NCBI GenBank assembly: GCA_028278025.1
Contig: JANQFE010000096.1
Span: 10,711 to 74,710 of the forward strand
Length of the DNA: 64,000 nt
Direction of reading: 5' to 3'
Source of the DNA: Thermodesulfobacteriota bacterium
GTDB taxonomy: Bacteria > Desulfobacterota > WTBG01 > CAIYCZ01 > CAIRTM01
Shown here: in pieces, positions 12,109 through 56,539 of the stretch
Numbering within the stretch: position 1 is the first letter of the stretch
Layout of the letters: each line of letters starts with the position of its first letter
Notes under the pieces: generated by a model
Databases searched by the model: none
What the model was told of the DNA's origin: nothing
Seen by the model: only the letters and a program-made list of their open reading frames with translations
Translations under genes and position numbers: made by a program

Positions 12109-12142
12109 TTTAAAAAAAAATCTGCACATAGCGTTCATGCAC

Positions 12143-15618: not shown

Positions 15619-15660
15619 TGCTTTTGTCTCAACCTTTAAAGCATCATGTAATAAACAAAA

Positions 15661-17778: not shown

Positions 17779-17835
17779 TATATACTGTTTCTTAATAAAG
17801 TTGTCTGATTAGTTTATGCAGCTAATGCAGAGATG

Positions 17836-18705
17836 CTATTGAATCAGAAATTGAACTCTTTTGATTTCCCTGCGGTTTCTGGATAATACTATATGATAAG
17901 TTCCAGGAGATATATCCTTAAACAGCGCCTTACCATCTTCTAGGAAGAGCGACACTATTTCGAGGGTATCATGAAACAAAGAAACTCTGATATTATCAAG
18001 AGAAGAGCGTAGGCCTGATGTTGAGAGAAAAACCAACACTTCAAATTTTTGTTTCTCAAGTTCTTCTATTTCAATTTTCAGCTCAATTCCCCCGGACCTG
18101 TCCATGATAATGGATATGTTTTCCTGGAGTTTTCTTTTACCCTTTCGAACCATTATAAGCTGCGGTTCAGATTGAGGAATAAAAAGTTCGGCAACAAAAT
18201 CCCTGCATTTTTGGAGAATGGATTTAGTAAGGTGTATCATTTGTGTGCTTAATGAAGTGTCAGTGCTTTTGCTAAGAGGATATTCCCGTGAGACTGCTTT
18301 AAGAAAACTATGCAGCCCATCTACTGGTTCCTTATGAAAAGTCATTTTTTGCATATCCTGCTCAAGATCAAGAAGCTGTGAGAAATATCTGTTACAGTCA
18401 GTACAACTATTAAGGTGTTGTTTAATTTCTTTTAGGCCCTTATCAGATAGCATTTCTCTCTGGTTAGCATACGCGACAAGAAGATCAGGGTCAATACAAC
18501 TGGAATCTGCATATTTTTCTGCAAGAACTGTCCTGTGTGTTGATAATGCGGCATCAATTTCACGCAGTTTTATAATCTCATGTCTGCATGCGGAGCACCC
18601 ATCAATATGTGCTGCAAGCGTTTTCATATCATTGCCGTTTAACTGCTTTTCAAGATAAAGCAGTAATTTGTCATTGAGCTCAGGTTTATCACATTGTGCT
18701 TTCAC
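17836..18705 (-). CDS. Anti-sigma factor, zinc-finger (ZAS, HxxxCxxC) type
   Basis: GTG start at 18705 overlaps the sigma stop (GTGA). 'HIDGCSACRHE'. Second Cys pair 'CTDC'. Position is immediately downstream of the ECF sigma gene. Confidence 0.65.
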   Translation of the reverse strand: MKAQCDKPELNDKLLLYLEKQLNGNDMKTLAAHIDGCSACRHEIIKLREIDAALSTHRTVLAEKYADSSCIDPDLLVAYANQREMLSDKGLKEIKQHLNSCTDCNRYFSQLLDLEQDMQKMTFHKEPVDGLHSFLKAVSREYPLSKSTDTSLSTQMIHLTKSILQKCRDFVAELFIPQSEPQLIMVRKGKRKLQENISIIMDRSGGIELKIEIEELEKQKFEVLVFLSTSGLRSSLDNIRVSLFHDTLEIVSLFLEDGKALFKDISPGTYHIVLSRNRREIKRVQFLIQ

Positions 18706-19304
18706 AAAAGATCTCCCTTGTTTTGTTCACAAAGGTTTCTCAACTCCAACAAACAGCGTTTCAGTCGTGACGCCACAGTGCCCATAGGAATATTAAGGGT
18801 AGATACAATTTTGTCATATGAAAAGTTATCAAAATATTTTAGTTTTATGATCTCACGGCACTTTGTTCCTATATTATCAAGAGCTGATGTCAGCAGCTCA
18901 CGTGTCTCGGTGCATTCAAGATGGTCATAAAAAGAAGAGTGCGTGTCTTCCAGTACCAAGCGGGGGGAGCCATCTTCATCTGCAGCATCAATTGACAAAC
19001 AGTTTTTTTCCCCCTCACGTTTTTGGGCTGTGATTTTTCTGATTTCTGAAACACATTTGTTTTTAGCGATATTTGAAGCAAAGGTTTCAAGAGAACAGTC
19101 AAATTTGAACGATTTTAATGAAGTGACAAGACCGGTAAATACTTCCTGTATTATTTCCTCTGCATCCTCAAAGTCAAAATTCCATTTTTTCCAATGGGCA
19201 ACGAACCGGATAGTATTATAGGTTCGTTTATAGAGGATGGACCAGGCTTCTTCGCTGCCGGTCAGGCATTGCGTAACAAGTTCTTTATCATCCTGCACTG
19301 CCAA
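18702..19304 (-). CDS. ECF-family RNA polymerase sigma-70 factor
   Basis: Sigma-70 region 2 ('EAWSILYKRTYNTIRFVAHW...EDAEEIIQEVF') and region 4 ('YFDNFSYDKIVSTLNIPMGTVASRLKRCLLELR'). The ORF track starts at 19460. A GAGGAGG SD 8 nt upstream of TTG 19304 gives an ECF-typical length of about 200 aa. Confidence 0.85.
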   Translation of the reverse strand: MAVQDDKELVTQCLTGSEEAWSILYKRTYNTIRFVAHWKKWNFDFEDAEEIIQEVFTGLVTSLKSFKFDCSLETFASNIAKNKCVSEIRKITAQKREGEKNCLSIDAADEDGSPRLVLEDTHSSFYDHLECTETRELLTSALDNIGTKCREIIKLKYFDNFSYDKIVSTLNIPMGTVASRLKRCLLELRNLCEQNKGDLL

Positions 19305-19876
19305 GAATGTTTCCTCCTCAAAGATATATATAACCAGATAACAAAAAGCTTTTGTATCTATAGATAAACATAAGCAATGCCTTTTCTCTGGAAGGTAGAT
19401 ACAGTAAACTGTAATATGATTGTGGTTTTGACGTCTGTTTGCTCTAATATTTTTTCTCATTTTTACATAAATTGCAATAAATAAACAGGATTAGAATTAT
19501 TTTTATTATAATCTATAATTAATTAGCTATTGTTAAAATTTTATTTCCCTTTTGGTGCAATGCTTAAAAGACATAATTAGAATACAATGAAAAATGGAGT
19601 TTCTCTAATATCTATTGTCGCAATCTGAAATAATTTGTTTCTAAAAAATGATTTATTTATTCAATCAACATAACAATCATTTTTCGCTCAGTTGATGCTG
19701 TTGGAAACAAGACCACATTTAATGCAGATGATTTCAAATGAAATGAGAAGTTTTATCAAGTGAGGTTTTTTCCTCAGGTGATAGCGAAGAACTAAAATTT
19801 TATTTAAAATATGATGGTTTAGAAAATTTTGCATAATGTTCACCTTTAGTGTTGGGTTGTTACTATTCAATGAATT

Positions 19877-31766: not shown

Positions 31767-33245
31767 TTATCTTGAATCTGCTGTCAGCTTTTCTATTACA
31801 GGCAGTACTGTTTCCAGTATGGTCTTTGCAATAGAGGTAACTGCCGGGTATGTATCCATTAAATCGACAATTGCAGCTGACTGGGCATAATAGAGTTTTA
31901 TAAGAGCTTTGCCGGTCTTGTTTTGTGCAAGGACTCTGTCTCGGAATTGCCGCAGCGTTTCAAGACAGGGATCCGCCTCACCAAGCAGCTCGATGGCCGG
32001 ACATGGGAGAAGAGGCGCTACCGTTACCTGCTGCGATGCAGTGTTCGTGAGCGCTTCAGGGTCCTTAACTTGCAGTATAATGGTATATGTACCGGGCTCT
32101 GCATAGGTAGTGGTTGCCGTTTTAGTTGGGCTGTATTGAGTATCCCAGGTACCGTCATTTTCCCAGTCCCAGCGCACTTCAAGAGAATCCGAGCTATCCT
32201 CTGCATCAGTGGAGGCCGAGGCATCAACGCTGAATTCAGTACGGGTGTTACCTGATATAGGATCAACAGAAAATAAAGCGGTTGGGGCAGTATTGGTAGG
32301 CACGGAAGTTGTTGTAGTTGTTGTTTCCGAGACCGGGGAGAAGTAACGCAGTATGATACCATCATTGCCAACGGCATAGGCTTCATTTGAAGGGCTTACC
32401 CAAAGGCCCTGGAGAAGTTTTGAAACACCGCTTTCCATCTTCATCCAGGTGTTTGACCGATAGTTATAAATAATACCGTCTTCACCCGCAGTAAAGATAT
32501 TAGGAGCGGTGGTGCCTTCAATATCCCAAAAATCTTTTTTGGTACCGGCACTCTGCTTAGTCCATGTTTCACCGTTATAGATAAGTAGTGTGCCGTTTTT
32601 GCCGACAGCAAAAACATTTGTTGCAGACGTACCCCAAATGCTGTAAAGATCATCCTCGACAAAACTTTCCTGTACGGTCCAATCACTGCCGTCAAAGTGC
32701 AGAATAACGCCCTTTTCACCAACGGTAAAGATATCATCGGCAGCGCTGCCCCAAATGTCCAAAAGAGTGTCGCTTACAGGACTCAGCATGCTTGAGCAGG
32801 AGGATTCATTACACTGCTTGATTATACCCTTTTCCCCGACAAAAAACATTTCAGAGAAAGAAGTGCCCCATATCCCGTAAAGGTTAACTGAAGTGTCACT
32901 GGGCACCGGCTGCCAGGCAGATTCATTTTTTTTCAAGATGGTGCCGTCATTGCCAGCAATAAATATGCTGTCATTAGCAGGACCCCAAATTCGATTGAGC
33001 GTATTGGCAGTACCACTGTCTAATTCTTTCCAGGTTGTGCCGTTGTCAAAAAGAAGCGTACCGGCAAAGCCTACCGCATAGATGCTGGTATCTGAGGTCC
33101 CCCATACATCTTTCAGTACCTCCTTTGTCGGACTTTTCATACCTGTCCACTCCTGGGCGTAAAGGCCACCGGCAGTAAAGAGTAAAATAAATGTGATCAT
33201 TAAAAAAAAAAGTGATTTTTTCATACGGTACCTCCAATTTTGCAT
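31767..33245 (-). CDS. Secreted 7-bladed beta-propeller protein with PKD domain and the conserved C-terminal domain (CTD-C)
   Basis: Signal peptide. Seven repeats of 'IWG(T/S)S...(F/Y)AVG..G.IL....(S/E)W'. PKD 'FSVDASASTDAEDSSDSLEVRWDWENDGTWD'. C-terminus 'CPAIELLGEADPCLETLRQFRDRVLAQNKTGKALIKLYY'. Confidence 0.75.
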   Translation of the reverse strand: MQNWRYRMKKSLFFLMITFILLFTAGGLYAQEWTGMKSPTKEVLKDVWGTSDTSIYAVGFAGTLLFDNGTTWKELDSGTANTLNRIWGPANDSIFIAGNDGTILKKNESAWQPVPSDTSVNLYGIWGTSFSEMFFVGEKGIIKQCNESSCSSMLSPVSDTLLDIWGSAADDIFTVGEKGVILHFDGSDWTVQESFVEDDLYSIWGTSATNVFAVGKNGTLLIYNGETWTKQSAGTKKDFWDIEGTTAPNIFTAGEDGIIYNYRSNTWMKMESGVSKLLQGLWVSPSNEAYAVGNDGIILRYFSPVSETTTTTTSVPTNTAPTALFSVDPISGNTRTEFSVDASASTDAEDSSDSLEVRWDWENDGTWDTQYSPTKTATTTYAEPGTYTIILQVKDPEALTNTASQQVTVAPLLPCPAIELLGEADPCLETLRQFRDRVLAQNKTGKALIKLYYAQSAAIVDLMDTYPAVTSIAKTILETVLPVIEKLTADSR

Positions 33246-34803: not shown

Positions 34804-36798
34804 GTGGTACACAAAAATCAGTTTGATATTTTCTATCATAACAGTACCTACTATGACAACCGTGTTATGAAAAAAAAGCACAATTTTTTATTAAACAAAA
34901 CAGAAGAAAAAGAACCCCAAAGTTCTATGCGAATTGCGGCAATCAGCAGCATTCTGATAATTTTAATTATATATCTTATTAGTATGTGTCCGACGATCTA
35001 TTCGGGAGATGCACCGGAGCTTGCTACGGCAGGCGCCACTTTCGGCATTCCTCATCCTCCCGGTTATCCGCTGTATGTGCTGTGTGCAAATATTTTTTCA
35101 GGGCTTATGCCGTTTGGGAACCCGGCTTGGGAAATTAATCTTATGTCAGTGATTGCAGCGACCGGCGCTGTGGCCGGTGTGTTCGGCATAGCTCTGCTTT
35201 TGTATGAATCATGGGTACCGGCTGTTTTTGCAGCCCTTGGACTTGGTGTCGGTGCAACAATGTGGTCACAGGCACTGATTTCCGAGGTTTATGCATTTGA
35301 CCTGCTGCTGGCTGCGGCTACACTCTATAGTGCACTCAAGGCACGGCAGAAGCAGACCTTAACCAGTTGTGCCCTTACCGTTTTTCTGGCGGCAAGCTGG
35401 ACCGGTCATAGAACGGTCAATATACTGTATATTTTATCGGTTCTAATACTGCTTGGGCCTGTACTGCAAAAAACAGTATGTAGCGTTAAAGGCTGTCTTA
35501 TCATCGCTTTGGCATGTATAGCACCGTTTCTTGTTTTTTTGTATCTTCCGCTGGCCTCATCCTACAATCCGATGCTCGATACCGGTGATCCGGAAACTTG
35601 GCAACGTTTTTGGGATATGGTTACTGCTTCAGTTTATAAACAGTATCTTTTTGGTGGTGGTATAAATACATTTTTTATTCAGCTCATATACATTTTTTCA
35701 TCTTTGCCCAAAGAACTGGGCGCGGCCATAATACTTGCACCGGTTGGTGCTGTTTTTTTATGGCTGCAGAAAAAAACCGAAGCAGTAGCTTTGCTTTATC
35801 TGGCAGGTGCAAACTTGTTTTTTGCAGCAAATTATCAGGTGCTTGATGTAATGGTGTTTACCCTGCCGTCGCTGCTGGCACTGCATGTACTGTCAGGGGC
35901 CGCGATTAGGGGCATGTTTGGAAAGCTGCCTAAAATGTATACGATAACTATAATTATAGGGCTCGTTATTGCAACAGCCGTATATACAAGTGCAGAGAAC
36001 AACTTGCGTGAGCAAACCCTTTGCCGTGATTTTGCCCGCGATGCATTAAACTGTGCTGAAGACAATGCCCTTATCTTAAGTAATGTTGACAGTGTTACCT
36101 TTGCACTTTGGTATATGCAGTATGCAGAATCATACAGAGAAGATATCCTGGTTGTTTCAAAGGGCCGATCAGTTGACTGGTATCAAGAGCAGACAAAGAA
36201 GCAGAGACCGGATTTAATCATACAGAAATATCAGGGAGCTGATGCTGCAAGCAGATGGCCGGCCATGCTGGCCGAAAACAATGCCGGTACTGTACTGGTC
36301 TACCTTACAGCAAATATGAAGGGCTATTTTTTGCCTATTGACATGATGAGATTAAACAATGTAGTGACCGAGGTGCCTTCAGGGATATTGATGCAGATTG
36401 TGCCGCGTGATGCTGTGCCTTCACCAGAAAAGGTTATTGTGCGTAATGAAACCTTATGGGATCAGTTGTGGCCTCACGCAGTCAAGGCACGCACGCAGAA
36501 CCTGGCAACCGATATGACGGCCCTGCTTTTGCATTATGCAAGTATGCGAGTACTGTTTGCACGGTATTGTTTGTGGCATGGACATGCCGGGGCTGCAAAA
36601 AATGCTTCGCAGGATGTTATTGAACTTGATACTGATGAGTTGATTACAAAGGTCAATAAAACCTTTCAACGCAAAGGCTTCAGGTACCATATGTCCGATA
36701 TGTCTCAGCAGGCTGTTATGCTCAATCGCCTTGCATTGTTGTTGCAGCAAGAAAAACTTGACCTCATACAGATAAGAAGAAAGCTGGCAGGAGCGTAA
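34804..36798 (+). CDS. Polytopic membrane protein, DUF2723/TMEM260-like putative GT-C glycosyltransferase; the true start is probably downstream (M at about 34867 or 34927)
   Basis: N-terminal TM-rich region 'CPTIYSGDAPELATAGATFGIPHPPGYPLY' followed by a large soluble C-terminal domain. Confidence 0.5.
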   Translation: MVHKNQFDIFYHNSTYYDNRVMKKKHNFLLNKTEEKEPQSSMRIAAISSILIILIIYLISMCPTIYSGDAPELATAGATFGIPHPPGYPLYVLCANIFSGLMPFGNPAWEINLMSVIAATGAVAGVFGIALLLYESWVPAVFAALGLGVGATMWSQALISEVYAFDLLLAAATLYSALKARQKQTLTSCALTVFLAASWTGHRTVNILYILSVLILLGPVLQKTVCSVKGCLIIALACIAPFLVFLYLPLASSYNPMLDTGDPETWQRFWDMVTASVYKQYLFGGGINTFFIQLIYIFSSLPKELGAAIILAPVGAVFLWLQKKTEAVALLYLAGANLFFAANYQVLDVMVFTLPSLLALHVLSGAAIRGMFGKLPKMYTITIIIGLVIATAVYTSAENNLREQTLCRDFARDALNCAEDNALILSNVDSVTFALWYMQYAESYREDILVVSKGRSVDWYQEQTKKQRPDLIIQKYQGADAASRWPAMLAENNAGTVLVYLTANMKGYFLPIDMMRLNNVVTEVPSGILMQIVPRDAVPSPEKVIVRNETLWDQLWPHAVKARTQNLATDMTALLLHYASMRVLFARYCLWHGHAGAAKNASQDVIELDTDELITKVNKTFQRKGFRYHMSDMSQQAVMLNRLALLLQQEKLDLIQIRRKLAGA

Positions 36799-39666: not shown

Positions 39667-41097
39667 TTATTCCGTTACCGTAACTGTTAGTGATGCAATA
39701 TCAGAAAGTTCGTTTTGGTAGTCACCTACCTGAACGCGGGCGGTATATTCACCCGGAACAAAATAAACATACTGGTATTGACTTAAAAATAAACATTCTG
39801 CTGGAAAACCGTCACCCATATCCCAGCAATAGAATTGGATGCCAGTGCCATCAGGATCATGAGCAGTACAGGTGAAAGTAAATATAGTTTGCAAGGCCAC
39901 ACCACTAGTCGGTTCGACAGTGAAAGAATCAATGATTGGAGCTCCGGAACCGGATGAAACAGACGTAGTTGTGGTTGGATCACCTGATATAGATGTGCTG
40001 GTAGTTGTATCCGCACCGGGTACGGTAGTGGTTGTGTTTGTTCCGTCGGGAACGGTAGTAGTTGCGGGGGGTGTCTCTCCGGTTTCGATATAGGTAATGG
40101 CCCGCTCAAGCACATAGTCATGGGTGTCGTCAAAGCTTTGCTCAGAGGATATCCCAATATCAGGAGGAACGCCGTTATCCTCTATCACTTTGTCATAATA
40201 GGTATAGGCCATCCAGCTGGAAATTGCATAGCTTACCCTGTTGGGCAGTTCATAGGTCTGGGGAAAGCCTGAGGCTCCGCGGGTTCGTTCACCGATAAGG
40301 GCAATGTTCGGATTGCGCTTCATCATCAGCGTGAACCATTCAGCCGAGCTCATGCAGCGTTTTCCGATCAGTCCTACAACCGGTCCACTGAAATGAGTAC
40401 CGGCATTGGGGTCCAGGGCATGAGACACGGGTGGGTCAAAATCGTCGTGGTTGGGACCGTTGCGGGTTGTTGTATAGCCGTACTCGTACGATTCATCAGT
40501 TAAACGGGAACAAAACAGCGCAGCATTTTCTTCATTTCCGCCGTTGTTCGCGCGGATATCGATAATCATGCCGTCGGCATTTGCATACTTCTGAAAAATC
40601 TCATCAATGGCATTATCGGTTATTGACCGAAAAGCACTGTCTTCCAGCGTAACGATATCAATGTAGGCAATATTATTGCCGACAATACCGTGCGTTATTG
40701 TTCCGTTGGCAAGGTCTGTTGCATCGGTTATATACTGACTTGTTACCGACCAATCGGGTCGATTAACGTTGTAGGAACCATCGTAGCCGTACACATTGCC
40801 TGTGGGCGATGCAACCGACACATGCCAGTCATGCAGTACCTGCAGCATTTCATTGAGCTGCTGGGCGAACTGCTCAGCATCCATTTCCTCCTGAAAGTTG
40901 GGTGCATACTGTTGCTTGACCGCGTTCCAGTCAACATTCTTATAGGTAAAGTACGAGTAATGCTGATCAAAATCGCTCCAGGCCTGCTCAAAGAGTTCAG
41001 AGGTGGGGGTTCCAATGATGCAGCCTCTTTGGCCGCAGATAAACGGTATACATGCCAAAAGCAGAAGCAACTGAAAGAATCTTATAAGATAGTTCAT
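39667..41097 (-). CDS. Secreted S41-family peptidase (tail-specific/C-terminal-processing protease-like) with Thr-rich linker and C-terminal PKD-like domain
   Basis: 'IIDIRANNGGNEENAA' and 'GKRCMSSAEWF' are S41-like motifs. 'TTTVPDGTNTTTTVPGADTTTS' linker. C-terminal PKD-like module shared with the 41203..42543 protein. Confidence 0.75.
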   Translation of the reverse strand: MNYLIRFFQLLLLLACIPFICGQRGCIIGTPTSELFEQAWSDFDQHYSYFTYKNVDWNAVKQQYAPNFQEEMDAEQFAQQLNEMLQVLHDWHVSVASPTGNVYGYDGSYNVNRPDWSVTSQYITDATDLANGTITHGIVGNNIAYIDIVTLEDSAFRSITDNAIDEIFQKYANADGMIIDIRANNGGNEENAALFCSRLTDESYEYGYTTTRNGPNHDDFDPPVSHALDPNAGTHFSGPVVGLIGKRCMSSAEWFTLMMKRNPNIALIGERTRGASGFPQTYELPNRVSYAISSWMAYTYYDKVIEDNGVPPDIGISSEQSFDDTHDYVLERAITYIETGETPPATTTVPDGTNTTTTVPGADTTTSTSISGDPTTTTSVSSGSGAPIIDSFTVEPTSGVALQTIFTFTCTAHDPDGTGIQFYCWDMGDGFPAECLFLSQYQYVYFVPGEYTARVQVGDYQNELSDIASLTVTVTE

Positions 41098-41202
41098 AAC
41101 AGTACTCCATAAAAAAACAGCAATTATTTACTTAATATAATACTTTGTTTTATATTGGATAAAAATATGCTAAAAACATATAATGCTATAATTATGAATT
41201 TT

Positions 41203-42543
41203 TTACTCCTCGGTAACTTCAAAAGATGCGGATGCTATAGTATAATTATCCTGGTCGTCCCATACAGACACATAAGCTGTAAAGGTTCCAGCAATATAGG
41301 CAGTAGCTGAAAAAGTGCTGCTGAGTGTTGTTGCATCCCATTCCCAGAATTGCTCGACAGAACCGCCGCTGCTGCCGTCAAAATCCCACCAGTACGCAAC
41401 AATTGAACCGTCCGGATCATGTGCCTCACACGTAAAGGTAAAAAATGTTTCATAAATCTGTCCGGAGGTAGGACTGATGGTAAAGGAATCAATGACAGGT
41501 GCCCCAGAGTTAGAATCAACAGTCGTTGTTGTTGTCGCAGTGCCGGGTACTGAAGAAGATGTAGTTGTATCACCACCCGGGGAAGGCGTATTTTCAAGCA
41601 ATCCGGGTCGGTATGCCAGGATGTTTGCCTGAATACGTTCAGCCTGACCGGGAGTGAATTCTGTTAAACAGGGATCAGAGGAATAATCCATATAGTTATG
41701 AATCGGGTCTTTGCCGGGGCGTAGCGGACAGGAATTGCGGGAATCAGGACAGCCGCTTGTAGAGGTACGCTGGGCCGGTGTATCATCTACATAATCCCCA
41801 TTGCCGTAACAAAAACGAGGGGCCTCGAAAGTATGGTAGAGACCCAGCCAATGACCGGTTTCATGGACGGCAGTATCGCCTTCATTGTAATCTTCAAAGT
41901 CGCCGCCGGGAAGGGAAGAGTATGTAACAACCACACCATCAACCGCAGGGGCAGACTCCAGATCCCATGGAAATTTGGCGTATCCGAGTTTGTTTTCTTC
42001 AAGAACGGCTGAGTAAAGATTTAAATAATAGTGAGGATCCAGGTTTAGGGCCGCTTTTGCTTCAACCTCTGAAGTTTCTTTTTCCATTTTAAACCACTCA
42101 GGATCATCAGTATAGTCTACTTGTACCAGCAGGAATTGTACACCCATTGACCGGTATGCTTGGTTCATAACATTTAATTGTGCATCAATATCTTCCTGTG
42201 TAAGGAGACCCTCCTGACCGTTATGCATAACATGAAAAGCAACCGGTATAGTCAGTCCAGAAGCTGGAAAGTCCTGGATCATGCCGCGTCTCTTGTTATA
42301 ATCAGGATCATCTGGATCAGGTAAAAGTGGTGAAATAGTTTCCTGTAGAAGCCGTGCTTCTTCAGGAGTAACATCACGAGTTGAGCACCGTATTATAGAA
42401 GATGGGGGTTCATTTTCACCATCAAGATAAGTTTCGGATGCAAATACTCCTGTTTTTCCTGAAAGAACATAACTGCTTGGAGAATAAACTAGAATTACAC
42501 TAAGAAATATAATTGCATACACATATAATCGTCTGCTTTTCAC
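41203..42543 (-). CDS. Secreted M43 (pappalysin/cytophagalysin-like) zinc metallopeptidase with Thr-rich linker and C-terminal PKD-like domain
   Basis: 'VHETGHWLGLYHTF' (HExxHxxGxxH). Signal peptide. C-terminal module paralogous to the S41 protein's. Confidence 0.8.
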   Translation of the reverse strand: MKSRRLYVYAIIFLSVILVYSPSSYVLSGKTGVFASETYLDGENEPPSSIIRCSTRDVTPEEARLLQETISPLLPDPDDPDYNKRRGMIQDFPASGLTIPVAFHVMHNGQEGLLTQEDIDAQLNVMNQAYRSMGVQFLLVQVDYTDDPEWFKMEKETSEVEAKAALNLDPHYYLNLYSAVLEENKLGYAKFPWDLESAPAVDGVVVTYSSLPGGDFEDYNEGDTAVHETGHWLGLYHTFEAPRFCYGNGDYVDDTPAQRTSTSGCPDSRNSCPLRPGKDPIHNYMDYSSDPCLTEFTPGQAERIQANILAYRPGLLENTPSPGGDTTTSSSVPGTATTTTTVDSNSGAPVIDSFTISPTSGQIYETFFTFTCEAHDPDGSIVAYWWDFDGSSGGSVEQFWEWDATTLSSTFSATAYIAGTFTAYVSVWDDQDNYTIASASFEVTEE

Positions 42544-42574
42544 ATAACCCCCCTTCTACAGTGAATATTAATAA

Positions 42575-43492
42575 TCACAACTCGCTATCGTCAAGCAAGC
42601 CCGGGCGATACATCAGGGTCATGGCCTGCATACGCTCATTCTGGCCAGGCGTAAACTCGTACAGGCAGGTATCATAGGAATAATCCATGTAATTGTGAAT
42701 TGGATCGAGCCCCGGCCGCAGGGGACAGGAATTGCGGGAATTCGGACAGCCGCTGGTAGAAGACCGCTGGGCCGGGGTATCAGCTACGTAATCCCCGTTT
42801 CCCGAGCAGAGCCTTTGACGCTGGAATGTATGGTAGAGACCAAGCCAATGTCCAACTTCATGCACTGCAGTATCACCCTCATTAAAGTTTTCGGTTTCTC
42901 CTCCCGGGATTGAAGAATAAAGCATTACCACTCCGTCCACTTCGGGATTTGTTGCCAGATCCGACGGAAATTTGGCATACCCGAGCAGGCTGTCTTCCAG
43001 TCCGGCTGAATACAGGTTTAAATAATTGAAAGGATCAAGGTTAAGGGCCGATTTTGCCTCTAACTCAATCTCACCTCTTTCCATGGTAAACCATACAGGA
43101 TCGTCAGTAAAATCAACCTGTGCCAGCGAGAACTGAAAACCGGTACCCTGGTAGGCCTCATTCATAACACTGATCTGGGCATCAATATCTTCCTGGGTAA
43201 GCAGCCCGTCATCACCATTGTGCATCACGTGAAAAGCTACCGGGATGACTATTCCTTCTGCTGGAAAATCCTGGATCATACTGTTCTGATTCTTGGAGCC
43301 CGGGGCATCCCGATCAGGTAACAGAGGAGCAATTATTTCCTGAATCCGTTGGGCTTCTGCAGGCGCTACATCACGTGTTCCACAACGAATGACTGTGGTA
43401 CTTTCCCCAAAGGATGGAGTTGTGTTTATGGCAAAAACCGGTAAAAAAACAGCGATTGCACTAAATAACCTACCTACATTTTTCATGCTCAA
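42575..43492 (-). CDS. Secreted M43 zinc metallopeptidase (tandem paralog, lacks C-terminal extension)
   Basis: 'VHEVGHWLGLYHTF'. Collinear with 41203..42543 over the catalytic domain. Confidence 0.8.
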   Translation of the reverse strand: MSMKNVGRLFSAIAVFLPVFAINTTPSFGESTTVIRCGTRDVAPAEAQRIQEIIAPLLPDRDAPGSKNQNSMIQDFPAEGIVIPVAFHVMHNGDDGLLTQEDIDAQISVMNEAYQGTGFQFSLAQVDFTDDPVWFTMERGEIELEAKSALNLDPFNYLNLYSAGLEDSLLGYAKFPSDLATNPEVDGVVMLYSSIPGGETENFNEGDTAVHEVGHWLGLYHTFQRQRLCSGNGDYVADTPAQRSSTSGCPNSRNSCPLRPGLDPIHNYMDYSYDTCLYEFTPGQNERMQAMTLMYRPGLLDDSEL

Positions 43493-43543
43493 TCCTCCAA
43501 CAAAAATTGTACTATTAATGATTTTACATTACAATAATATACT

Positions 43544-45754
43544 CTATTCAATAGTTAAATCGTTTAACAGGGTACCCGTAAGCAAATCGTTTTGTAATGT
43601 TTCAATAGCATAAGTCAAATCAGGCCCGGCATGCTGCTTTAGTGCTTCACACAATTTATTTATACGGGATATCTCAAAAGAAGTGAGTTTTAGATGATTC
43701 TTTTTAACGGCATAGTCCAGTGCGGGCAGCAGGTCAACCAGAGTTTTACCTGCCAGGGCTCTCACCTTGGGCTTGTTTGTTACAATTGAAACAACTTCTG
43801 CAGTATGCAGATAATACAAATCAATTAATTCTCTGCCATAACCTGTCTTGCGAAGCACTGTATCCCTGAAATTTCTTATTAATGCAGTTTTTGCAGATTT
43901 GTGGCCGAGTAACCGGGCAATACCGCAAGCACCGCCGCTGACTGTTGTGGTTGTGTCTCCGCCACCACCACTAGGAACAGTGGTGGTGCCCGGTGTAACG
44001 CTGGCACTGGTTTCATGAAATCTAATGCTGGGGCCAGCATCAGCAGGAGCGCTCCAGGCACCATCGACTTTGCGGTATACTGCACCGCTGTTATGAATGT
44101 TGACACTGTCGGCAGTCGGTCCCTGGGCACTGACGGTAAAATTACTGTTGTAGCCGTAACGTCCCGAAGCTTCATTTGCAAGATTGGCAAAATAAAAGCT
44201 CTTTAACAAGTCTTCCCATGACCCAATACCAGAGATTCTTTGAGACGCTGCCCCAACAACACCCTGATAGTCATGCACACCATTAGCAATCATATAGTCA
44301 AGGATTGCTTTAAATATATCCTGACCCGTTGACGATTGAATTGCAAGGTACTGACCAAACAGATATGAAAGGGTATAATTTGCAAAAACATCACCCTGGT
44401 TATCCCAGAATGAAAGGCCATGGCCGTTTTTAATGCTGTCACGGGGGTCAATGTTGTAGTATTCGATTCTATCTGCAAGATAGCCCTGGCCCTGCATGCT
44501 GGGGTGCGAATATGCAGTATCATTTTGGAGCTTATATTTGAAATACATGGTTTCAGAAGCCATAGCCATCATTTCATCTATCCAGACATCTGAAAAATCA
44601 CCGCTGTTGCCCTGGGTCCAGACTTTAATGCAGAAGTGAACCAGGTGCTGATATTCATGAACAAGCGTTGTAAGATTGTAATTATAGAAATCATAATCTG
44701 TCTCAGTTGACCACCCTTGCGGCTCGTTGCCCCTGATGTAAATAATATCCATTTCATTGCTGCGGATTCCCTGTACACTGGTCGTGGAATCATTAAGGTA
44801 ATCCTTGCTCCAGAAATAGCCGCCCATATAACCGGTAGCAACACTGCCGTCGTCATTCATGGCATACAGCAGTACGGCAACCTTGTTATCTCCGTTTCTG
44901 TCGGTAAAAACACCGATATTGTCTCTAACAACTGTGTACATAGTTTCAAACTCGGTTGCATACTCTTCAAGGTTTTCATTTGAGATAGAAATAGTATTAT
45001 CTACAAAAATGTTTGCATGCGTACCTGACTTCTGTACGGTGGCCGACACCTGACGCCAGGCAGAATCATTATTATCCTTAACCCAGAAAAAGCCGGTATC
45101 GCCGACATCATAAACCGTAACATCCTCAGAGTGTAACGTCTCAGCTCTTTTTTTAAGAACTTCTTTTGTCTGCCTGATCGACGATAAATCAGGGCGAGGG
45201 AAGGGCTGATCATGCCAACGGATTAGCGGCTTGCCGTCCTGCCTGTACAACATGGGTGTGCTTTCAAAAAAGCTTGTACCAGGAAGGGTGCCCGACGATT
45301 CGGGAGAATCATTTTCACCATTGCCGTTAATATTAATTGCCGCAATATACTGACCAGCCGAGGAGGAGCCGCCGGGAATAGTTGTGGTTGTATCACTGCC
45401 GGGGACAGTAGTTGTCGTACCGCCTTCAGGTATTGTAGTTGTTGACGGAGAAGAATCTTTTAAGCATTGCTGATCTGCATTATAATAATCACCACATGAT
45501 GTACCTGCAGGACAGCACCAGTAATTAAAAACATCGTCAAAACAGCATACCGTAAAATCCTGGTGGCAGCAGAAATAATCAAAGCCGTCAAAACATTCAA
45601 TTGTGTATTCCGGAAATCCACTGGGTGGACAATTTTGACCATACGAAATACCCTGCGGCAGCAGCAAAGGGTGGAAAAACAAAAGCAAAGGTAATTGGAA
45701 ATAGATTCTCAGTTTCATTCGATATGCTCCATGATAGATATTTAAAATATTCAT
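43544..45754 (-). CDS. Secreted M30 (hyicolysin)-like metallopeptidase with Thr-rich linkers and the conserved C-terminal domain (CTD-D); paralog of 3007..6423
   Basis: 'TTLVHEYQHLVHFC...WIDEMMAMASETMYFKYKL'. C-terminus 'ALIRNFRDTVLRKTGYGRELIDLYY'. The true start is possibly M13 (MKLRIYF..., 45718). Confidence 0.8.
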   Translation of the reverse strand: MNILNIYHGAYRMKLRIYFQLPLLLFFHPLLLPQGISYGQNCPPSGFPEYTIECFDGFDYFCCHQDFTVCCFDDVFNYWCCPAGTSCGDYYNADQQCLKDSSPSTTTIPEGGTTTTVPGSDTTTTIPGGSSSAGQYIAAININGNGENDSPESSGTLPGTSFFESTPMLYRQDGKPLIRWHDQPFPRPDLSSIRQTKEVLKKRAETLHSEDVTVYDVGDTGFFWVKDNNDSAWRQVSATVQKSGTHANIFVDNTISISNENLEEYATEFETMYTVVRDNIGVFTDRNGDNKVAVLLYAMNDDGSVATGYMGGYFWSKDYLNDSTTSVQGIRSNEMDIIYIRGNEPQGWSTETDYDFYNYNLTTLVHEYQHLVHFCIKVWTQGNSGDFSDVWIDEMMAMASETMYFKYKLQNDTAYSHPSMQGQGYLADRIEYYNIDPRDSIKNGHGLSFWDNQGDVFANYTLSYLFGQYLAIQSSTGQDIFKAILDYMIANGVHDYQGVVGAASQRISGIGSWEDLLKSFYFANLANEASGRYGYNSNFTVSAQGPTADSVNIHNSGAVYRKVDGAWSAPADAGPSIRFHETSASVTPGTTTVPSGGGGDTTTTVSGGACGIARLLGHKSAKTALIRNFRDTVLRKTGYGRELIDLYYLHTAEVVSIVTNKPKVRALAGKTLVDLLPALDYAVKKNHLKLTSFEISRINKLCEALKQHAGPDLTYAIETLQNDLLTGTLLNDLTIE

Positions 45755-45777
45755 GATTGTTTTACGGTCATGAGTGG

Positions 45778-47256
45778 CTACTCCACAATTTCAAAATCAG
45801 CAGACATCGTGTTAGATTGCTCATCCGCTGAAATGTTCGTAACACTTACACCGGTATCAGTGCCGGTGTAATCACTGCTGTTAGGAATTGACTCGGGTGT
45901 AAATTCAGTCCCCGGTACATAAAAATCATCGGGATCGAAATATGATTCCTGCCATGACAGGTTCTCAATCTCCTCACGTCCGTCAGCCTCCATAAGGCGC
46001 AGCAGTTTATGGTCTGTATAGCTGTTGTCGAAAGCAAAATCAGTCCCTTCCATGTTAAGGACTGCATCAACATGCCAGATAAGATACCCGTTATTCGGGA
46101 TATTGTAATCATTTTCAGTTGCTGAGCGGTGCTGTACCAGAAAATATTCTGAGAACGGATCAATGCTGCCGGTTTGCGAAGGCATTATGGCAATGCAATC
46201 CTGCATTTCAGATGATGGATTGAGTGCCGGGGCCTTTGAGCCGCCGGTTATAACATCGGGCGTGATCCAGCCCAGCATCCATTTGCTGAAACAGTTATGA
46301 TCAAACTCATTGCCGTCCATCATATCAAGCCCGCCCACACCCCCGCCTGGGCCCTGATTCTCATCATAATCATAATAGTCGGGCAATCCAAGCGCATGCC
46401 CGGTTTCATGAATAATTGTTACCGGAGAGTATACATACTCCTCCAGTCGTTCATTGATTTCCCACTGCCAGGAGAAAACGCCGAGCCTTTTTCCATCGAT
46501 GGTGAACGGATCGCCGGCCCAAAGGGCACCGTCGTGCTGGGCCCACCCCCACCAGACAGAGCCCCAGCCGGTATCGGGCCCGGTCCAGATAACCGCAAAA
46601 TAGTCTATTGTGCCATCTCCATCATTGTCATATTGTGCAAAGTCGTGCGAACCGTCATAAGAAAGTAATGCTTCTTTAATCAGTTTCTTTATGCCGTTGA
46701 TACTATGTCTGGTAAATAAACCAAAGCTGTACCAGCCCCTTCTGTGCTGAGCTTGATACCATCCCAACACATCGCCCTGGATAGTGAGCGATCCGTATGA
46801 TGAACGGTCATAATAATTGGTAAGACTTTCATAGGGGTATTCGGACTGATCCCCATCTCCAAAAATTTTTCTATTAAAAACTGCTACATCCGTTGCATGT
46901 GGAAAATTGGGAAACTCAATAAGTAAAATGAAAATCTTCGGGGTACCTTGGGACGGCAATCCGGTATTATAAGGAAACAGGGCTTCTGTAGGGTCTTGCT
47001 GTAATAATCTTACCCCCGGTTTTTTTTGCTGAATGAGGGAGGGGTGGAATCGGTGATTATTTAAAAACCGGACAAAACTGATGCGATGATCAAAGCTGCC
47101 GTCCCTTTTATAGCGCTCTATTTCCCCAGGTTGTGGCGGCTCAAGACAAAAGGCATCAGGGGGGAGCATACAAAGAACCAGCGCAGATATAGTGATATAA
47201 TTTATAGAAAAAAAATATTTTACTGATTTTTTGTTATGTTTTTGGTTTTTGATCAT
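45778..47256 (-). CDS. Secreted M6 (immune inhibitor A-like) metallopeptidase
   Basis: 'IIHETGHALGLPDYYDYD' (M6 HExxH...LGLPD motif). N-terminal signal/TM. Confidence 0.7.
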   Translation of the reverse strand: MIKNQKHNKKSVKYFFSINYITISALVLCMLPPDAFCLEPPQPGEIERYKRDGSFDHRISFVRFLNNHRFHPSLIQQKKPGVRLLQQDPTEALFPYNTGLPSQGTPKIFILLIEFPNFPHATDVAVFNRKIFGDGDQSEYPYESLTNYYDRSSYGSLTIQGDVLGWYQAQHRRGWYSFGLFTRHSINGIKKLIKEALLSYDGSHDFAQYDNDGDGTIDYFAVIWTGPDTGWGSVWWGWAQHDGALWAGDPFTIDGKRLGVFSWQWEINERLEEYVYSPVTIIHETGHALGLPDYYDYDENQGPGGGVGGLDMMDGNEFDHNCFSKWMLGWITPDVITGGSKAPALNPSSEMQDCIAIMPSQTGSIDPFSEYFLVQHRSATENDYNIPNNGYLIWHVDAVLNMEGTDFAFDNSYTDHKLLRLMEADGREEIENLSWQESYFDPDDFYVPGTEFTPESIPNSSDYTGTDTGVSVTNISADEQSNTMSADFEIVE

Positions 47257-47607
47257 ATTAGGTATTCCTAAAGGGTAAATAGTTAAAATAATACAAAAAA
47301 AATAACGAATATGGTGATAACAGGTTTTGATAAAAAAGTGTCGGAGAAAAGAAATATGGTAGATGTTTTTTCACAGGTTAGAGGCCTTATAGGTAACATG
47401 CTTTAGTAATAAGCATAATTATATTAATATCATACTGTACTTGAAAAAGAAAGTTCCAAACGACTATACAATAGTGGAATAATTAGTAAAAAGTAAAGGA
47501 AATAAGGATTGCAAAATATATTTTTAAAAAATTACAAGACAACAACTCCCGGATTGAAGCAGGACGTCTACGCCCCAACAGTTTTTTTACAGTTGCCGGG
47601 TTGTCTC

Positions 47608-47637
47608 TTGAAAATTATTAATATTTCATTATATATA
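47608..47637 (+). promoter_or_regulatory. Sigma70-like promoter (TTGAAA-N18-TATATA) of the candidate small RNA
   Basis: Read directly. The transcript would start near 47644 at GGAAGGAGG. Confidence 0.35.
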
Positions 47638-47640
47638 TAA

Positions 47641-47890
47641 GTGGAAGGAGGTGTGTTCAGCTCGATACCCTTGGGCAAAAATTATAAAATTTTGATTACC
47701 ACAGTATGCTGTGGAAACCGACTGATAATTACAAAATGTCAGTTGGTCAAAAAAAGATTGTTAACTTAGCAGAAAGGATTTTCTAACACAAATTCTTTTG
47801 CACTAAAAATAAATTCACCTCCTTCCTTCCACTTTTTTAAAAATGGGTTTTATAAAAAGCAGGATTACCATATAGTCCTGCTTTTTTATA
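47641..47890 (+). ncRNA. Candidate small RNA (about 250 nt). The 5' GGAAGGAGGUG is complementary to the 3' CACCUCCUUCCUUCC, giving a terminal clamp stem, followed by an intrinsic terminator (8-bp stem 47857-47883 plus U-tract)
   Basis: Long-range inverted repeat gtggaaggaggtg (47641) / cacctccttccttccac (47817). Terminator aaaaagcagga-loop-tcctgctttttt. No convincing ORF; the best candidate is a 26-aa peptide. Confidence 0.35.
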
Positions 47891-48400
47891 TTTGATTAAG
47901 AAGTCTTCAGATTAGTAAAAAAAAGAATTTGGTTAAGTAACTTATTTTTTCTTGTTTCATAGAATCAACCGTACTATATTTTTACATAACGTGCTGAACA
48001 TATGTTGTGCTTGTTGGCTTGTTTTTAAGATTATAACATTGAACGAATACTGGTACAGCGTCACCGATGAACTGACACATTAAAGTGTGACGCCGTACTA
48101 GGCCGCTAATGCAGAGCAGTATGCGAAAAAGAAAAAAAGCAGTCAATATCCAGAGTACCTTTAGATGGTGTGACAGGGAAGAAAAGTATATTGCAATTGC
48201 CTCCTGTACCAAAAAGGGCGCAATAAAACCACGTTGCCGCAAATGTTTGATGACATGGCAGCGAACTCGCTATCAGTTGCCTTTGCCGTTTTCGATTGAG
48301 CAAAGGCGGTCAAAGCGATGAATTTATTATAATCACAATACTGCCGAACCGAACTATTTTTGAGGAAGACACTATCCGTGTAATTAGAGTTATACAATAG

Positions 48401-54562: not shown

Positions 54563-56539
54563 GTGACGGAAAAAAATTCAAGTACAAAAAATATTTTTGG
54601 ATGGAGGGGCAACATTCTACGAGTTAATCTTACTCAATCAAAGATATGGGTTGAAGATCTTCCGGAAGAATATATGGATAAATACATCGGCGGGGCAGGT
54701 ATCAATGCCCGGTTGCTGTATGACATTATGAAAGACAATTTACAGACAGATCCCCTTGATCCTGTAAGTCCGCTTATATTCGGCTGCGGGCCTATGGTTG
54801 GAACAAAATTTCCTTGTGCCAGCCGATTTACGGTCACTGCTAAAAGTCCGCTGACCGGGATTTTCGGGGATACAAATGCGGGGGGATATTTTCCGGTACG
54901 ACTCAAGCAGGCAGGTTATGACCATATTGTTATTCAAGGCAGAGCTGAAAAGCCGGTAGCACTTCTGATTGAGAAAGACAACCTGCCGGAGATCGTAGAT
55001 GCCCGTGACCTATGGGGTCTTGATATTTATGCTGTCGACGAAGCCCTACAGGAAAAATACGGGAGCTGTGAAACAGCCCGTATAGGGTCTGCCGGAGAAA
55101 ACCTGGTGCGCTATGCAAGCATCCTATCCGGTTCAAAAAGGGTAAGTTCAAATGGCCGCACCGGTATGGGATGTGTGATGGGCTCAAAAAATTTAAAAGC
55201 CGTCATTGTAAAAAGTACCGGCACAGTGCCGGTTGCCGATGAGCAGGCAGTTGATGTTTTGGCGAAACGCTATCGCGAAGTGTGGCACAAGGGGCCCGGT
55301 ACCACACTTAAAAGAGAGTACGGTACGCTCACCTTGATGTCACAGAAAGGAGAAACAGAACGTATTAAGAACGATCAGGAGCATATTACACAAGAGCAGC
55401 TTAACGCTTATGACCTTGAAGATTTTAAACAAAATTACAAAACCGGGCAGACCGCATGCTATCGTTGTCCGGTAGCCTGCAGCCAGAAATGGGCAATAAA
55501 GCAGGGTCCCTTTAAGGGGGACAGGGGTGACAAGGTTGAATACGGACATATGCTGCACCTGGGTCCTATGCTGGGAATATTTGATTTTTCTGCCATGCTG
55601 CATCTCACAGATGTATGTAACCGCATGGGTATGGACTGTATCCAGTTCGGATACAATACTGCCATGGCGATGGAATGTTTTCAGAGGGGTATCATAGGCA
55701 GCGAGGAATCCGGGGGCATCACGCTGCAATGGGGTGATGTTCAGGTTGTGGAGAAGCTGATGATGATGACGGCACACAGAGACGGCTTCGGTGATATTTT
55801 GGCTGAGGGTGCAACCGGTATGATTGCACGACTGGGACCCGGGACAGAGGTCTGCGGATCGCACATTAAGGGCATGTCTTTTACCTATAGCTGCAGCCAT
55901 GGAGTGCCTATGAGCCTGGCTTCATCGGTAGCAACCAGAGGGGGTGATCACCTCAAAGGACATCCCTTTGCAGCTATCATAGGCCACGAGGAGATGCTTG
56001 AAAAAATGTTCGGCAAGGATTTGCCCGAAGAAATTGCAGACCACACCAGTCCGGTTGCCAAGGGCCGTGTAGTGTGGTGGCAGGAAAACTACAAAATGAT
56101 TATGGACTGTCTGGGATTATGTTTTTTGCCGGTAATAAATGCAAATGTATGGAGCGATCCTCTTATACTGACAAAAGAGATGGGTGAGATGTATCAGACC
56201 ATAACAGGACGTGATCCGAAAAACCTGTTTGAATCGGCTGAGCGGGCCTATCAGGTTGAGCGTTGTTATAATGCACTACTGGGAATTACCCGCAAAGATG
56301 ATGCCTGGCAAGGCAATCTGCGCGGTGGTAAAAACCCCATTAACCATCCGGGTATGCTTGATGAGTATTATTTTTATAGGGGGTGTTCCAGTGACGGGTT
56401 GCCTACACTCAAAAGACTTAAAGAAATAGGGTTATCAGATATTGCCGGGGACCTGGCTAAAAATAAAAAACTTGCCGAAGAGGTAGCATGTCCTGATATA
56501 CGGGAACTGGTAAAGGATTCTCCTGATATTGTCGGGTAA
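54563..56539 (+). CDS. aor: Tungsten-containing aldehyde:ferredoxin oxidoreductase (AOR family)
   Basis: GTG start after GGAGG. 'ILRVNLTQSKIWVEDLPEEYMDKYIGGAGINARLLYD', AOR N-terminal domain. Length 658 aa. Confidence 0.9.
   Translation: MTEKNSSTKNIFGWRGNILRVNLTQSKIWVEDLPEEYMDKYIGGAGINARLLYDIMKDNLQTDPLDPVSPLIFGCGPMVGTKFPCASRFTVTAKSPLTGIFGDTNAGGYFPVRLKQAGYDHIVIQGRAEKPVALLIEKDNLPEIVDARDLWGLDIYAVDEALQEKYGSCETARIGSAGENLVRYASILSGSKRVSSNGRTGMGCVMGSKNLKAVIVKSTGTVPVADEQAVDVLAKRYREVWHKGPGTTLKREYGTLTLMSQKGETERIKNDQEHITQEQLNAYDLEDFKQNYKTGQTACYRCPVACSQKWAIKQGPFKGDRGDKVEYGHMLHLGPMLGIFDFSAMLHLTDVCNRMGMDCIQFGYNTAMAMECFQRGIIGSEESGGITLQWGDVQVVEKLMMMTAHRDGFGDILAEGATGMIARLGPGTEVCGSHIKGMSFTYSCSHGVPMSLASSVATRGGDHLKGHPFAAIIGHEEMLEKMFGKDLPEEIADHTSPVAKGRVVWWQENYKMIMDCLGLCFLPVINANVWSDPLILTKEMGEMYQTITGRDPKNLFESAERAYQVERCYNALLGITRKDDAWQGNLRGGKNPINHPGMLDEYYFYRGCSSDGLPTLKRLKEIGLSDIAGDLAKNKKLAEEVACPDIRELVKDSPDIVG

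Follow-up and report, generated by a model that had tools for sequence, protein, structure and literature searches.

A row of five genes for predicted secreted peptidases of four families in an uncultured Thermodesulfobacteriota bacterium

Organization of the peptidase row

A stretch of 64,000 nucleotides (hereafter, the window) from contig JANQFE010000096.1 of a Thermodesulfobacteriota bacterium (assembly GCA_028278025.1, positions 10,711 to 74,710 of the forward strand) was analyzed for a row of five consecutive minus-strand genes that encode peptidases with predicted export signals. In coordinate order, the open reading frames (ORFs) belong to the families S41, M43B, M43B, M30, and M6, i.e., four families, and they are separated by 105, 31, 51, and 23 bp (Table 1). 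The catalytic motifs are intact in all five proteins, those of the S41 protein being candidate motifs. By heuristic inspection, each N-terminus shows a hydrophobic h-region behind an n-region with K/R, i.e., the layout of a signal peptide. An initial annotation of the window had described the row in these terms, with four families, short gaps, and signal peptides on all five proteins, and profile and PDB searches bore out the families. All four family assignments stand because the HExxH motifs, for which a place in non-peptidase folds had been considered, sit in genuine peptidase folds.

Thr-rich linkers of the form TTTT[VI]PG were found in the three proteins for which they had been proposed, i.e., the S41 protein, the first M43 protein (M43-1), and the M30 protein, the last of which has two. 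These linkers could be O-glycosylated. A gene for a TMEM260-like protein O-mannosyltransferase lies on the plus strand at 34804-36798, 3 kb from the row, and a PMT_2 gene is also found near the M30 orthologue in the related locus L082.

The initial annotation counted at least eight secreted peptidases in the window. This number was too high, i.e., seven have family support (S41, two M43, two M30, M6, and C13), and they include the second M30 gene and the C13 peptidase near the window start, both of which are real. The only possible eighth is a CHAT (caspase-like) protein at 15661-17778, and its N-terminus is not signal-peptide-like. At the textbook level, peptidases are assumed to make up 2-5% of genes. 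Under this assumption, a 4,000-gene genome would by chance contain 1e-5 to 1e-3 runs of five peptidases, and seven peptidases among the 38 window ORFs have P = 1e-5 to 3e-3. The peptidase row is real and non-random, yet it is an ordinary kind of feature made of known enzyme families.

Domain calls cover 29 of the 38 window ORFs, i.e., 25 scanned here and four with precomputed Pfam calls from an identical copy of the locus (L081, the Logan assembly of SRR20820740). The flank genes with domain calls are of the housekeeping type, i.e., a pyridoxal phosphate (PLP)-dependent decarboxylase, a VanZ-like protein, a metallophosphoesterase, and a 2-hydroxyacid dehydrogenase. The PLP-dependent decarboxylase gene lies on the same strand, 215 bp downstream of the last gene of the row.

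A consensus scan of the minus strand found nothing terminator-like in the gaps of the row. In the divergent intergenic region upstream of the M6 gene, several sigma-70-like sites were matched on the minus strand, including 47447-47418 and 47279-47252, which are consensus matches only. A perfect hairpin with a 14-bp stem, having A and T runs on its flanks, was observed in the middle of this region (47854-47886). The region holds no ORF of note and no Rfam family that would account for the hairpin, and the Rfam search of the whole window gave no match.

Table 1. Coordinates of the peptidase row and of related features in the window
Feature	Position	Strand	Residues	Remarks
Five-gene peptidase row	39667-47256	minus		Five co-directional ORFs of 476, 446, 305, 736, and 492 aa
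S41 serine peptidase, predicted secreted	39667-41097	minus	476 aa	Tricorn-core/IRBP-like; Tricorn_C1 and S41 domains
Thr-rich linker of S41 protein			aa ~341-384
PKD-like C-terminal module of S41 protein	39670-39924		aa ~392-476
M43-1, predicted secreted M43B metzincin	41203-42543	minus	446 aa	Ulilysin/mirolysin-type; Thr-rich linker and PKD-like tail
M43-2, predicted secreted M43B paralog	42575-43492	minus	305 aa	Tandem duplicate of M43-1; no linker or tail
M30 zinc peptidase, predicted secreted	43544-45754	minus	736 aa	Lugdulysin/hyicolysin family; probably 724 aa from Met13 at 45718; signal peptide, Cys-rich module, Thr-rich linker, catalytic core, second Thr/Gly linker, helical C-terminal domain
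Cys-rich module of M30 protein	45464-45631		aa 42-97	No Pfam match
Catalytic core of M30 protein	44000-45367		aa ~130-585	H366-E367-xx-H370, E394, Y460
C-terminal domain of M30 protein	43547-43945	minus	aa 604-736	CFI-box-CTERM core and ~55-aa helical extension
M6 metallopeptidase, predicted secreted	45778-47256	minus	492 aa	Immune inhibitor A-like; first gene of the row; HETGHALGLPDYY at aa 283
Divergent intergenic region	47257-48400			1.14 kb; AT-rich (GC ~0.36); upstream of the M6 gene; likely promoter region of the row
PQQ-like beta-propeller, BACON, and C13 (legumain-like) peptidase protein, predicted secreted	2-2692	minus		Partial ORF; C-terminus past the window edge
M30 paralog outside the row	3007-6465	minus	1152 aa	Ig and PKD domains, two Cys-rich repeats, CFI-box C-terminal domain
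C-terminal domain of M30 paralog	3010-3417	minus		CFI-box
BNR/sortilin-type beta-propeller protein	9277-12348	minus		Pfam Sortilin-Vps10 (E=1e-22); CFI-box C-terminal domain (BLASTP matches)
C-terminal domain of BNR/sortilin-type protein	9280-9720	minus		CFI-box
PKD/tectonin-like protein, predicted secreted	31767-33245	minus	492 aa	Pfam PKD; short-form CFI-box C-terminal domain without helical extension
C-terminal domain of PKD/tectonin-like protein	31770-32060	minus		CFI-box

The S41 serine peptidase

The S41 protein matched Pfam PF03572 with 83.6 bits (cut-off 24, E=1.5e-23) and Tricorn_C1 with 40.6 bits (cut-off 24, E=2.4e-10). No PDZ domain was found in the Pfam search, and the NCBIfam models CtpA, CtpB, CtpC, CtpZ, and prc scored 27-43 bits against cut-offs of 218-665. 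Its matches among PDB sequences were 8VCB (E=1e-38 over 283 residues), 4L8K (E=9e-29), and also IRBP modules and CPAF. The protein was assigned to the tricorn-core-like branch because it is without PDZ, scores far under the CtpA/Prc cut-offs, and has these as its nearest solved relatives. The candidate Ser nucleophile lies in CMSSAEW (aa 248-254), aligned to RSFSATN/HSYSATN of 8VCB/4L8K, and the candidate His of the C1 domain lies in HDWHVSV (aa 89-95), aligned to QDGHVNL/KDGHTNL. In place of the Lys of the CtpA-type dyad, GERTRGASG is found. A possible lipobox (LLAC) lies at aa 13-16 of the protein.

The C-terminal module of the S41 protein matched Pfam PKD above the gathering score (30.3 bits, E=4e-7). 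As the initial annotation had proposed, a PKD-like tail is common to this protein and to M43-1. The two tails are 46% identical over 135 residues, and both matched the PKD domain of ColH in the PDB (E=9e-5 for M43-1).

The tandem M43B metzincins

The two M43 proteins, rightly described before as tandem paralogs, are 70% identical over 272 residues. At the DNA level, a repeat with a 997-bp period and 71-74% identity spans the pair. Both matched PF05572 (cut-off 23), i.e., M43-1 with 45.3 bits (E=1.1e-11) and M43-2 with 49.9 bits (E=4.4e-13). Among PDB sequences, the best matches were mirolysin 6R7W (E=9.4e-28) and ulilysin (E=1.8e-23). The zinc motif is HETGHWLGLYHTF at aa 227 in M43-1 and HEVGHWLGLYHTF at aa 211 in M43-2, and the Met-turn NYMDY follows at aa 283 and aa 267, respectively. 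The paralogs thus have in common HE[TV]GHWLGLYHTF and NYMDY, i.e., the metzincin HExxHxxGxxH and Met-turn. The likely true start of M43-2 is an ATG two codons in, and the Logan gene call of L081 gives 303 aa.

Directly after the signal peptide, both proteins carry a RC[SG]TRD motif, i.e., IIRCSTRD at aa 50-57 of M43-1, with Cys53 as a possible cysteine-switch Cys, and VIRCGTRD at aa 34-41 of M43-2, with Cys37. This resembles the QRTCG of mirolysin by motif alone. Mirolysin is kept latent by a cysteine switch with its N-terminal Cys23 (QRTCG), and M43B enzymes have Xaa-Arg/Lys specificity (PMC8259862). By analogy, the M43 enzymes of the row are probably cysteine-switch zymogens that prefer Xaa-Arg/Lys bonds.

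Homologues of the M43 proteins (at most 57% identical) were found in 80 metagenome loci. Tandem copies occur in 13 of the 80, and no other member of the row is present in any of them.

The M30 peptidase and its clade

The M30 protein gave no Pfam match even at E<=10. On the M30 paralog at 3007-6465, which is 42% identical to the row protein over 486 residues (BLASTP), PF10460 scored 16.1 bits against a cut-off of 25.8, and a precomputed PF10460 match was present in 3 of 54 M30 homologues. The failure of PF10460 is a limit of model sensitivity and not counter-evidence to homology. By phmmer against PDB sequences, the M30 protein matched lugdulysin 7BB8 over aa 179-542 (E=3.2e-28), and a family profile of 39 homologues matched lugdulysin with E=1.8e-93. 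The AlphaFold2 (AF2) model had a predicted local distance difference test (pLDDT) score of 80.6 overall and above 90 in the core. In the Foldseek search of this model, 7BB9/7BB8 were the top and sole strong fold matches (E=2e-22, target-normalised template modeling score 0.84-0.90), followed by thermolysin-like enzymes with E above 1e-3. The protein called M30-like in the initial annotation is a true, though divergent, M30 member that Pfam misses.

The residues H366, E367, H370, E394, and Y460 do not vary among the 39 aligned M30 sequences, and they align with HEYQH, WLNE, and NYSLSY of lugdulysin. E367 and Y460 are the counterparts of the residues mutated in 7BB9, 'E242Q Y315F' (offset 27, chain index versus entry numbering). 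E394 would be the third zinc ligand.

In tblastn of GTDB representative genomes, the nearest orthologues (41-47% identity) were found in metagenome-assembled genomes (MAGs) of Thermodesulfobacteriota or delta-proteobacteria. The next relatives, with 27-35% identity, belong to Bacillaceae, Staphylococcaceae (Staphylococcus and Macrococcus), and Thermotogota.

A six-Cys module recurs across the M30 clade, either N-terminally or just ahead of the C-terminal domain (CTD). In the window, it is placed at aa 42-97 of the M30 protein and at aa ~900-1010 of the paralog. Its consensus is CPx[DE]YP[VI]DCGNGYCCPxxxP[VY]CGxGxxxGxC, and it appears as stacked beta-hairpins in the AF2 model. A relationship with granulin was considered and rejected, i.e., Pfam Granulin gave E=0.4-1, which is not significant. 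A DsbA-like oxidoreductase is encoded near M30 in two loci (L003, 11826-12686; L083, 14897-15766), which fits disulfide-rich modules.

The M6 peptidase

The M6 protein matched TIGR03296 with 148.8 bits (cut-off 110.8, E=2.9e-43) and PF05547 with 34.2 bits (cut-off 22, E=2.2e-8). No match was found among PDB sequences.

The CFI-box C-terminal domain

The CTD of the M30 protein shows the core pattern Cys610 ... LRxFRDxVL ... G ... LYY. Its 6-7 helices form a bundle without a transmembrane segment, and the CTD modeled alone by AF2 reached a pLDDT of 91 and a predicted template modeling score of 0.82. The shared CTD of the initial annotation probably corresponds to the NCBIfam model NF041770 (cut-off 40), which matched the M30 protein with 32.6 bits, the M30 paralog with 31.0, the BNR/sortilin-type protein with 36.5, and the PKD/tectonin-like protein with 49.8. 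Three M30 orthologues (P0009, P0013, and P0005) scored 53.6, 41.1, and 40.8 bits. In the alignment of the four window CTDs, C, R-x-FRD, G, and LYY are invariant. A second conserved Cys of the domain lies in ...KLCEA.... Most of them are of a long form of ~130 residues, and the ~55-residue extension lies outside the 69-position NF041770 model.

A word-indexed search with a 16-sequence alignment gave 2 matches, and exhaustive HMMER was used instead. With the four window CTDs as query, it yielded 6,180 representative clusters with a limit of E<=1e-3, and the stricter limit of E<=1e-10 left 1,341. In nearly all of the best 150 of the 6,180 representative matches, the domain lies within ~25 residues of the protein C-terminus. 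As cargo, 54 long matches carry, among others, beta-propellers, PKD, CarboxypepD_reg, and peptidases of families C25, C1, and C13. The Foldseek search against the PDB found no solved relative (best E=3.3), and no published literature was found on the domain name or the motif string.

To judge from its extreme C-terminal position, its conserved leading Cys, and its diverse cargo, the CFI-box CTD would serve in anchoring or sorting. A dedicated CTD-processing system, formed by the CHAT, CsgG-like, and FadL-like genes at 12143-17778, was considered as a candidate and rejected, i.e., no homologues of these genes lie beside CTD proteins in ten related loci.

Relatives, synteny, and composition

No close copy of the locus was found in the GTDB representative genomes. 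The closest relative contig is L001, with 76-79% identity between its flanking proteins and those of the window. It retains the order 2-hydroxyacid dehydrogenase ... M30 ... S41, with 7 kb between S41 and M30. In place of the M43 pair, two S8 peptidases and a PD40/tricorn-like gene are found on the opposite strand, and no M6 gene is present. In other loci, the M30 orthologue has as its neighbours an S41 gene together with another M30 (L085), an M6 gene carrying a CFI-box CTD (L008), or a metzincin with a CFI-box CTD (L002 and L010). As a whole, M30 is paired with another secreted peptidase (S41, M6, metzincin, or S8) in 5 of the 10 loci with usable flanks. Among the genomes and loci compared, the full five-gene set was found solely in this organism.

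In the majority of related MAGs, a SAM hydroxide adenosyltransferase gene (SAM_HAT/DUF62) lies divergently beside the M30 orthologue, directly upstream of it in L002, L006, L008, L010, L082, and L085. This arrangement is lost in the lineage of the window.

A check for a mobile island, by composition, tRNA, integrase, and synteny, had been proposed in the initial annotation, and its outcome was negative. The GC content of the row is 0.462 versus 0.430 +/- 0.037 for the other 33 window genes, and the GC at third codon positions (GC3) is 0.438 versus 0.399 +/- 0.054. The codon-usage distance is 0.117 versus 0.132 +/- 0.032, i.e., below the window mean. All three values are within 1 standard deviation of the other window genes. 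No tRNA was found in the 64-kb window, and no direct or inverted repeats were found to bound the row. Neither the 25 scanned window proteins nor the four flank genes for which Pfam calls were precomputed, together 29 of the 38 ORFs, contained an integrase or transposase domain.

Interpretation of the row

The order of the genes, their families, the intact motifs (candidate motifs in S41), the domain layout of the proteins, the native composition, and the partial synteny were observed directly. From these, it is fairly probable that the row is a chromosomally native and co-transcribed set of five exported endopeptidases, which would break down protein outside the cytoplasm for nutrition in an uncultured anaerobe. 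The export and activity of the enzymes, their co-transcription, the latency of the zymogens, the anchoring by the tails, and the nutritional purpose are accordingly worded here as predictions. The initial annotation had read the window as a sign of an extracellular proteolytic or predatory lifestyle. The former is reasonable in view of the families and the export signals, and nothing in the window, of which 29 of 38 ORFs have domain calls, points to predation.

The enzymes of the row would have complementary chemistries, i.e., the M6, M30, and two M43B zinc enzymes together with a PDZ-less, tricorn-core-like S41 serine enzyme. Each protein would be exported by the Sec pathway through its N-terminal signal peptide. 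The M43 enzymes would probably be made as zymogens and held latent by the pro-segment cysteine. The Thr-rich linkers would set the catalytic domains apart from the accessory modules. Of these modules, the PKD-like tails of S41 and M43-1, and the Cys-rich module and CFI-box CTD of M30, would most likely keep the enzymes on the substrate or the envelope. As for its origin, the row probably grew in place, with a tandem duplication of M43 and the addition of further peptidase genes to an older M30 ... S41 backbone, and not through uptake of a mobile element.

Several points weigh against this interpretation. The signal-peptide calls rest on the n-region/h-region heuristic, and the promoter and terminator scan is consensus noise and thus uninformative for operon status. 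The targets may instead be surface proteins of the cell itself or proteins of competitors. In L003, L004, L007, L082, and L083, the M30 gene stands alone amid housekeeping genes, and because half of the related loci are of this kind, the association of M30 with other peptidases is a tendency and no rule. The window transketolase is similar to named transketolases, and its homologues of 69-76% identity are scattered over Calditrichota, KSB1, Deltaproteobacteria, and Bacteroidota, which speaks against a firm placement in a phylum. From the sequence, the organism is thus tentatively placed in Thermodesulfobacteriota, by its M30 orthologues, which lie in MAGs of Thermodesulfobacteriota and delta-proteobacteria.

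Three other explanations were weighed, and each has little or no specific support. CtpA and Prc of family S41 are C-terminal processing enzymes that use PDZ to read C-termini. A function of the peptidases mainly in the maturation or remodelling of the cell's own exported proteins, e.g., trimming or releasing CFI-box cargo, with S41 removing C-terminal domains, would be in line with this membership of the S41 family. It would also suit the presence of four CFI-box CTD proteins within one 64-kb window, and the recurrence of S41 with M30-CTD genes, adjacent in L085 and at the distance given above in L001. However, the window S41 has no PDZ, falls far below all Ctp cut-offs, and has tricorn-core/IRBP-like proteins as its nearest solved relatives. 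Four broad-specificity endopeptidase families exceed the needs of processing, and many M30-CTD genes have no S41 neighbour. Maturation is considered unlikely.

Antagonism or predation, in which the enzymes would be weapons for the lysis or digestion of other microbes, after the manner of myxobacterial or bdellovibrio-like predators, appears quite improbable. The density of peptidases is high (7 of 38 window ORFs), and pathogens use M6/InhA, M30, and M43B members against host defence proteins (PMC4404884, PMC8259862). Yet the 29 ORFs with domain calls include no genes for cell-wall lytic enzymes or toxin-delivery systems and none associated with predation, and the orthologues are widespread in sediment and groundwater MAGs, beside housekeeping genes. 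Predation and nutritional proteolysis are not separable from sequence data by themselves. Least probable is a horizontally acquired mobile genomic island with peptidase cargo, which is already largely refuted. It could explain why the content of the slot differs between the window (two M43 and M6) and L001 (two S8 and PD40), and why the five-gene set was seen in this organism only. Against it stand the typical GC, GC3, and codon usage of the row, the lack of tRNA, bounding repeats, and integrase or transposase domains in the scanned flank proteins, and the M30 and S41 genes, which belong to a backbone shared with L001.

Beyond nutritional proteolysis by a native row, a bolder proposal can be made, which we hold as possible but rather doubtful. 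The CFI-box CTD might be an undescribed surface sorting or anchoring module with its own recognition machinery, i.e., a functional analogue of the T9SS (type IX secretion system) CTD or of SLH, structurally unrelated to them. The row might then be a variable locus that swaps secreted peptidases around a fixed M30 ... S41 backbone in Thermodesulfobacteriota-like anaerobes.

Other genes of the window

In the partial ORF at the window start, Pfam matched PQQ_2 (E=5e-42), Peptidase_C13 (E=3.6e-11), and BACON (E=3e-8). Two small secreted tandem paralogs (6619-7230 and 7432-7980, minus strand) sit between the M30 paralog and the BNR/sortilin-type protein; they are 46% identical over 126 residues and belong to no Pfam family.

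The ORF start of the BNR/sortilin-type protein is over-extended because it overlaps the FadL-like gene at 12143-13495 by ~200 bp. The real signal peptide appears to be the hydrophobic stretch at aa ~89-113, and the true start is probably ~80 codons downstream. This gene directly adjoins a minus-strand run of envelope genes (12143-19460), which encodes an ECF (extracytoplasmic function) sigma factor, a zf-HC2 anti-sigma factor, the CHAT protein, a TPR/Ig protein, and the FadL-like outer-membrane protein. The CHAT and TPR/Ig proteins have a CsgG/LpoB-like C-terminal half in common.

The window also encodes a sulfatase and an aldehyde:ferredoxin oxidoreductase (AFOR)-like protein (54563-56539), which is 31% identical to the product of the AFOR gene of L001. 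Together with the BNR glycosidase-like CFI-box protein and the C13 peptidase, these genes would fit a polymer-degrading, amino-acid-fermenting anaerobe.

Significance and comparison with known systems

In anoxic sediments and groundwater, extracellular peptidases govern how fast detrital protein is recycled, and the catalogue of the enzymes that do this, and of the organisms concerned, is poor. The row gives a concrete example, i.e., four known peptidase families in one row of an uncultured anaerobe. The whole M30 clade is left 'hypothetical' by standard Pfam annotation, and therefore surveys with Pfam/MEROPS models would under-count M30 peptidases. Most promising among the by-products is the CFI-box CTD, a large family with a confident predicted structure that is found on many exported enzymes and can be tested as a possible signal for surface display or sorting. 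The findings on the row and the CTD add detail and leave the current understanding unchanged.

The M6 protein is comparable to immune inhibitor A (InhA) of MEROPS M6, with which it shares the TIGR03296 domain and the HExxHxLGLPD motif, but it is a short form of 492 residues. The ortholog-like M6 of L008 carries a CFI-box CTD, whereas the window M6 does not.

Compared with the tricorn-core/IRBP/CPAF branch of S41 (8VCB, 4L8K, 9FRX, and 3DOR), the window S41 protein has the same PDZ-less pair of Tricorn_C1 and S41 domains, with the candidate Ser motif and C1 His conserved in the alignments, and adds the Thr-rich linker and the PKD-like tail. The nearest solved relatives are annotated as 'putative peptidase', by accession code, or as 'uncharacterized protein'.

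The M43 pair is similar to the M43B 'unicellular pappalysins', i.e., mirolysin of Tannerella forsythia and ulilysin of Methanosarcina acetivorans, in HExxHxxGxxH(TF), NYMDY, and a conserved Cys pattern. The Cys near the signal-peptide cleavage site resembles the Cys23 switch of mirolysin. Unlike these enzymes, the window has two tandem copies, one of them with a Thr-rich linker and a PKD-like tail. In comparison with mirolysin, both are without a T9SS CTD and without a KLIKK extension.

For the M30 protein, the reference is lugdulysin of Staphylococcus lugdunensis (7BB8/7BB9) and hyicolysin, MEROPS M30. The core is homologous to lugdulysin over ~360 residues, with 23% identity in structural alignment. 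HEYQH is identical, and the Glu of W-x-[ND]-E and the Tyr of N-Y-[ST]-L-S-Y are conserved. The window M30 adds the N-terminal Cys-rich module, the Thr-rich linkers, and the CFI-box helical CTD. It belongs to a separate, unannotated clade of Thermodesulfobacteriota MAGs, with 41-55% identity within the clade and 27-35% identity to M30 of Bacillota/Thermotogota.

The window CTDs resemble NF041770 CFI-box-CTERM in their extreme C-terminal place after a low-complexity linker, in their occurrence on signal-peptide proteins, and in Cys followed by LRxFRDxVL ... G ... LYY. All four were matched by this model, but just one scored above its cut-off.

For the row as a whole, the KLIKK protease arrays of Tannerella forsythia are comparable. 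These are clustered secreted-protease genes, the clusters are absent from a close relative, and all six members carry a nearly identical CTD (PMC4404884). The row of the window, in contrast, has no common CTD, i.e., the PKD-like tail is found on S41 and M43-1 only, with the 46% identity given above, the CFI-box CTD on M30 only, and neither on M43-2 and M6. The organism is an environmental anaerobe, not a host-associated member of Bacteroidota, and no virulence link is present. With these differences, the KLIKK arrays are the nearest described analogue in organisation, i.e., clustered genes for secreted proteases.

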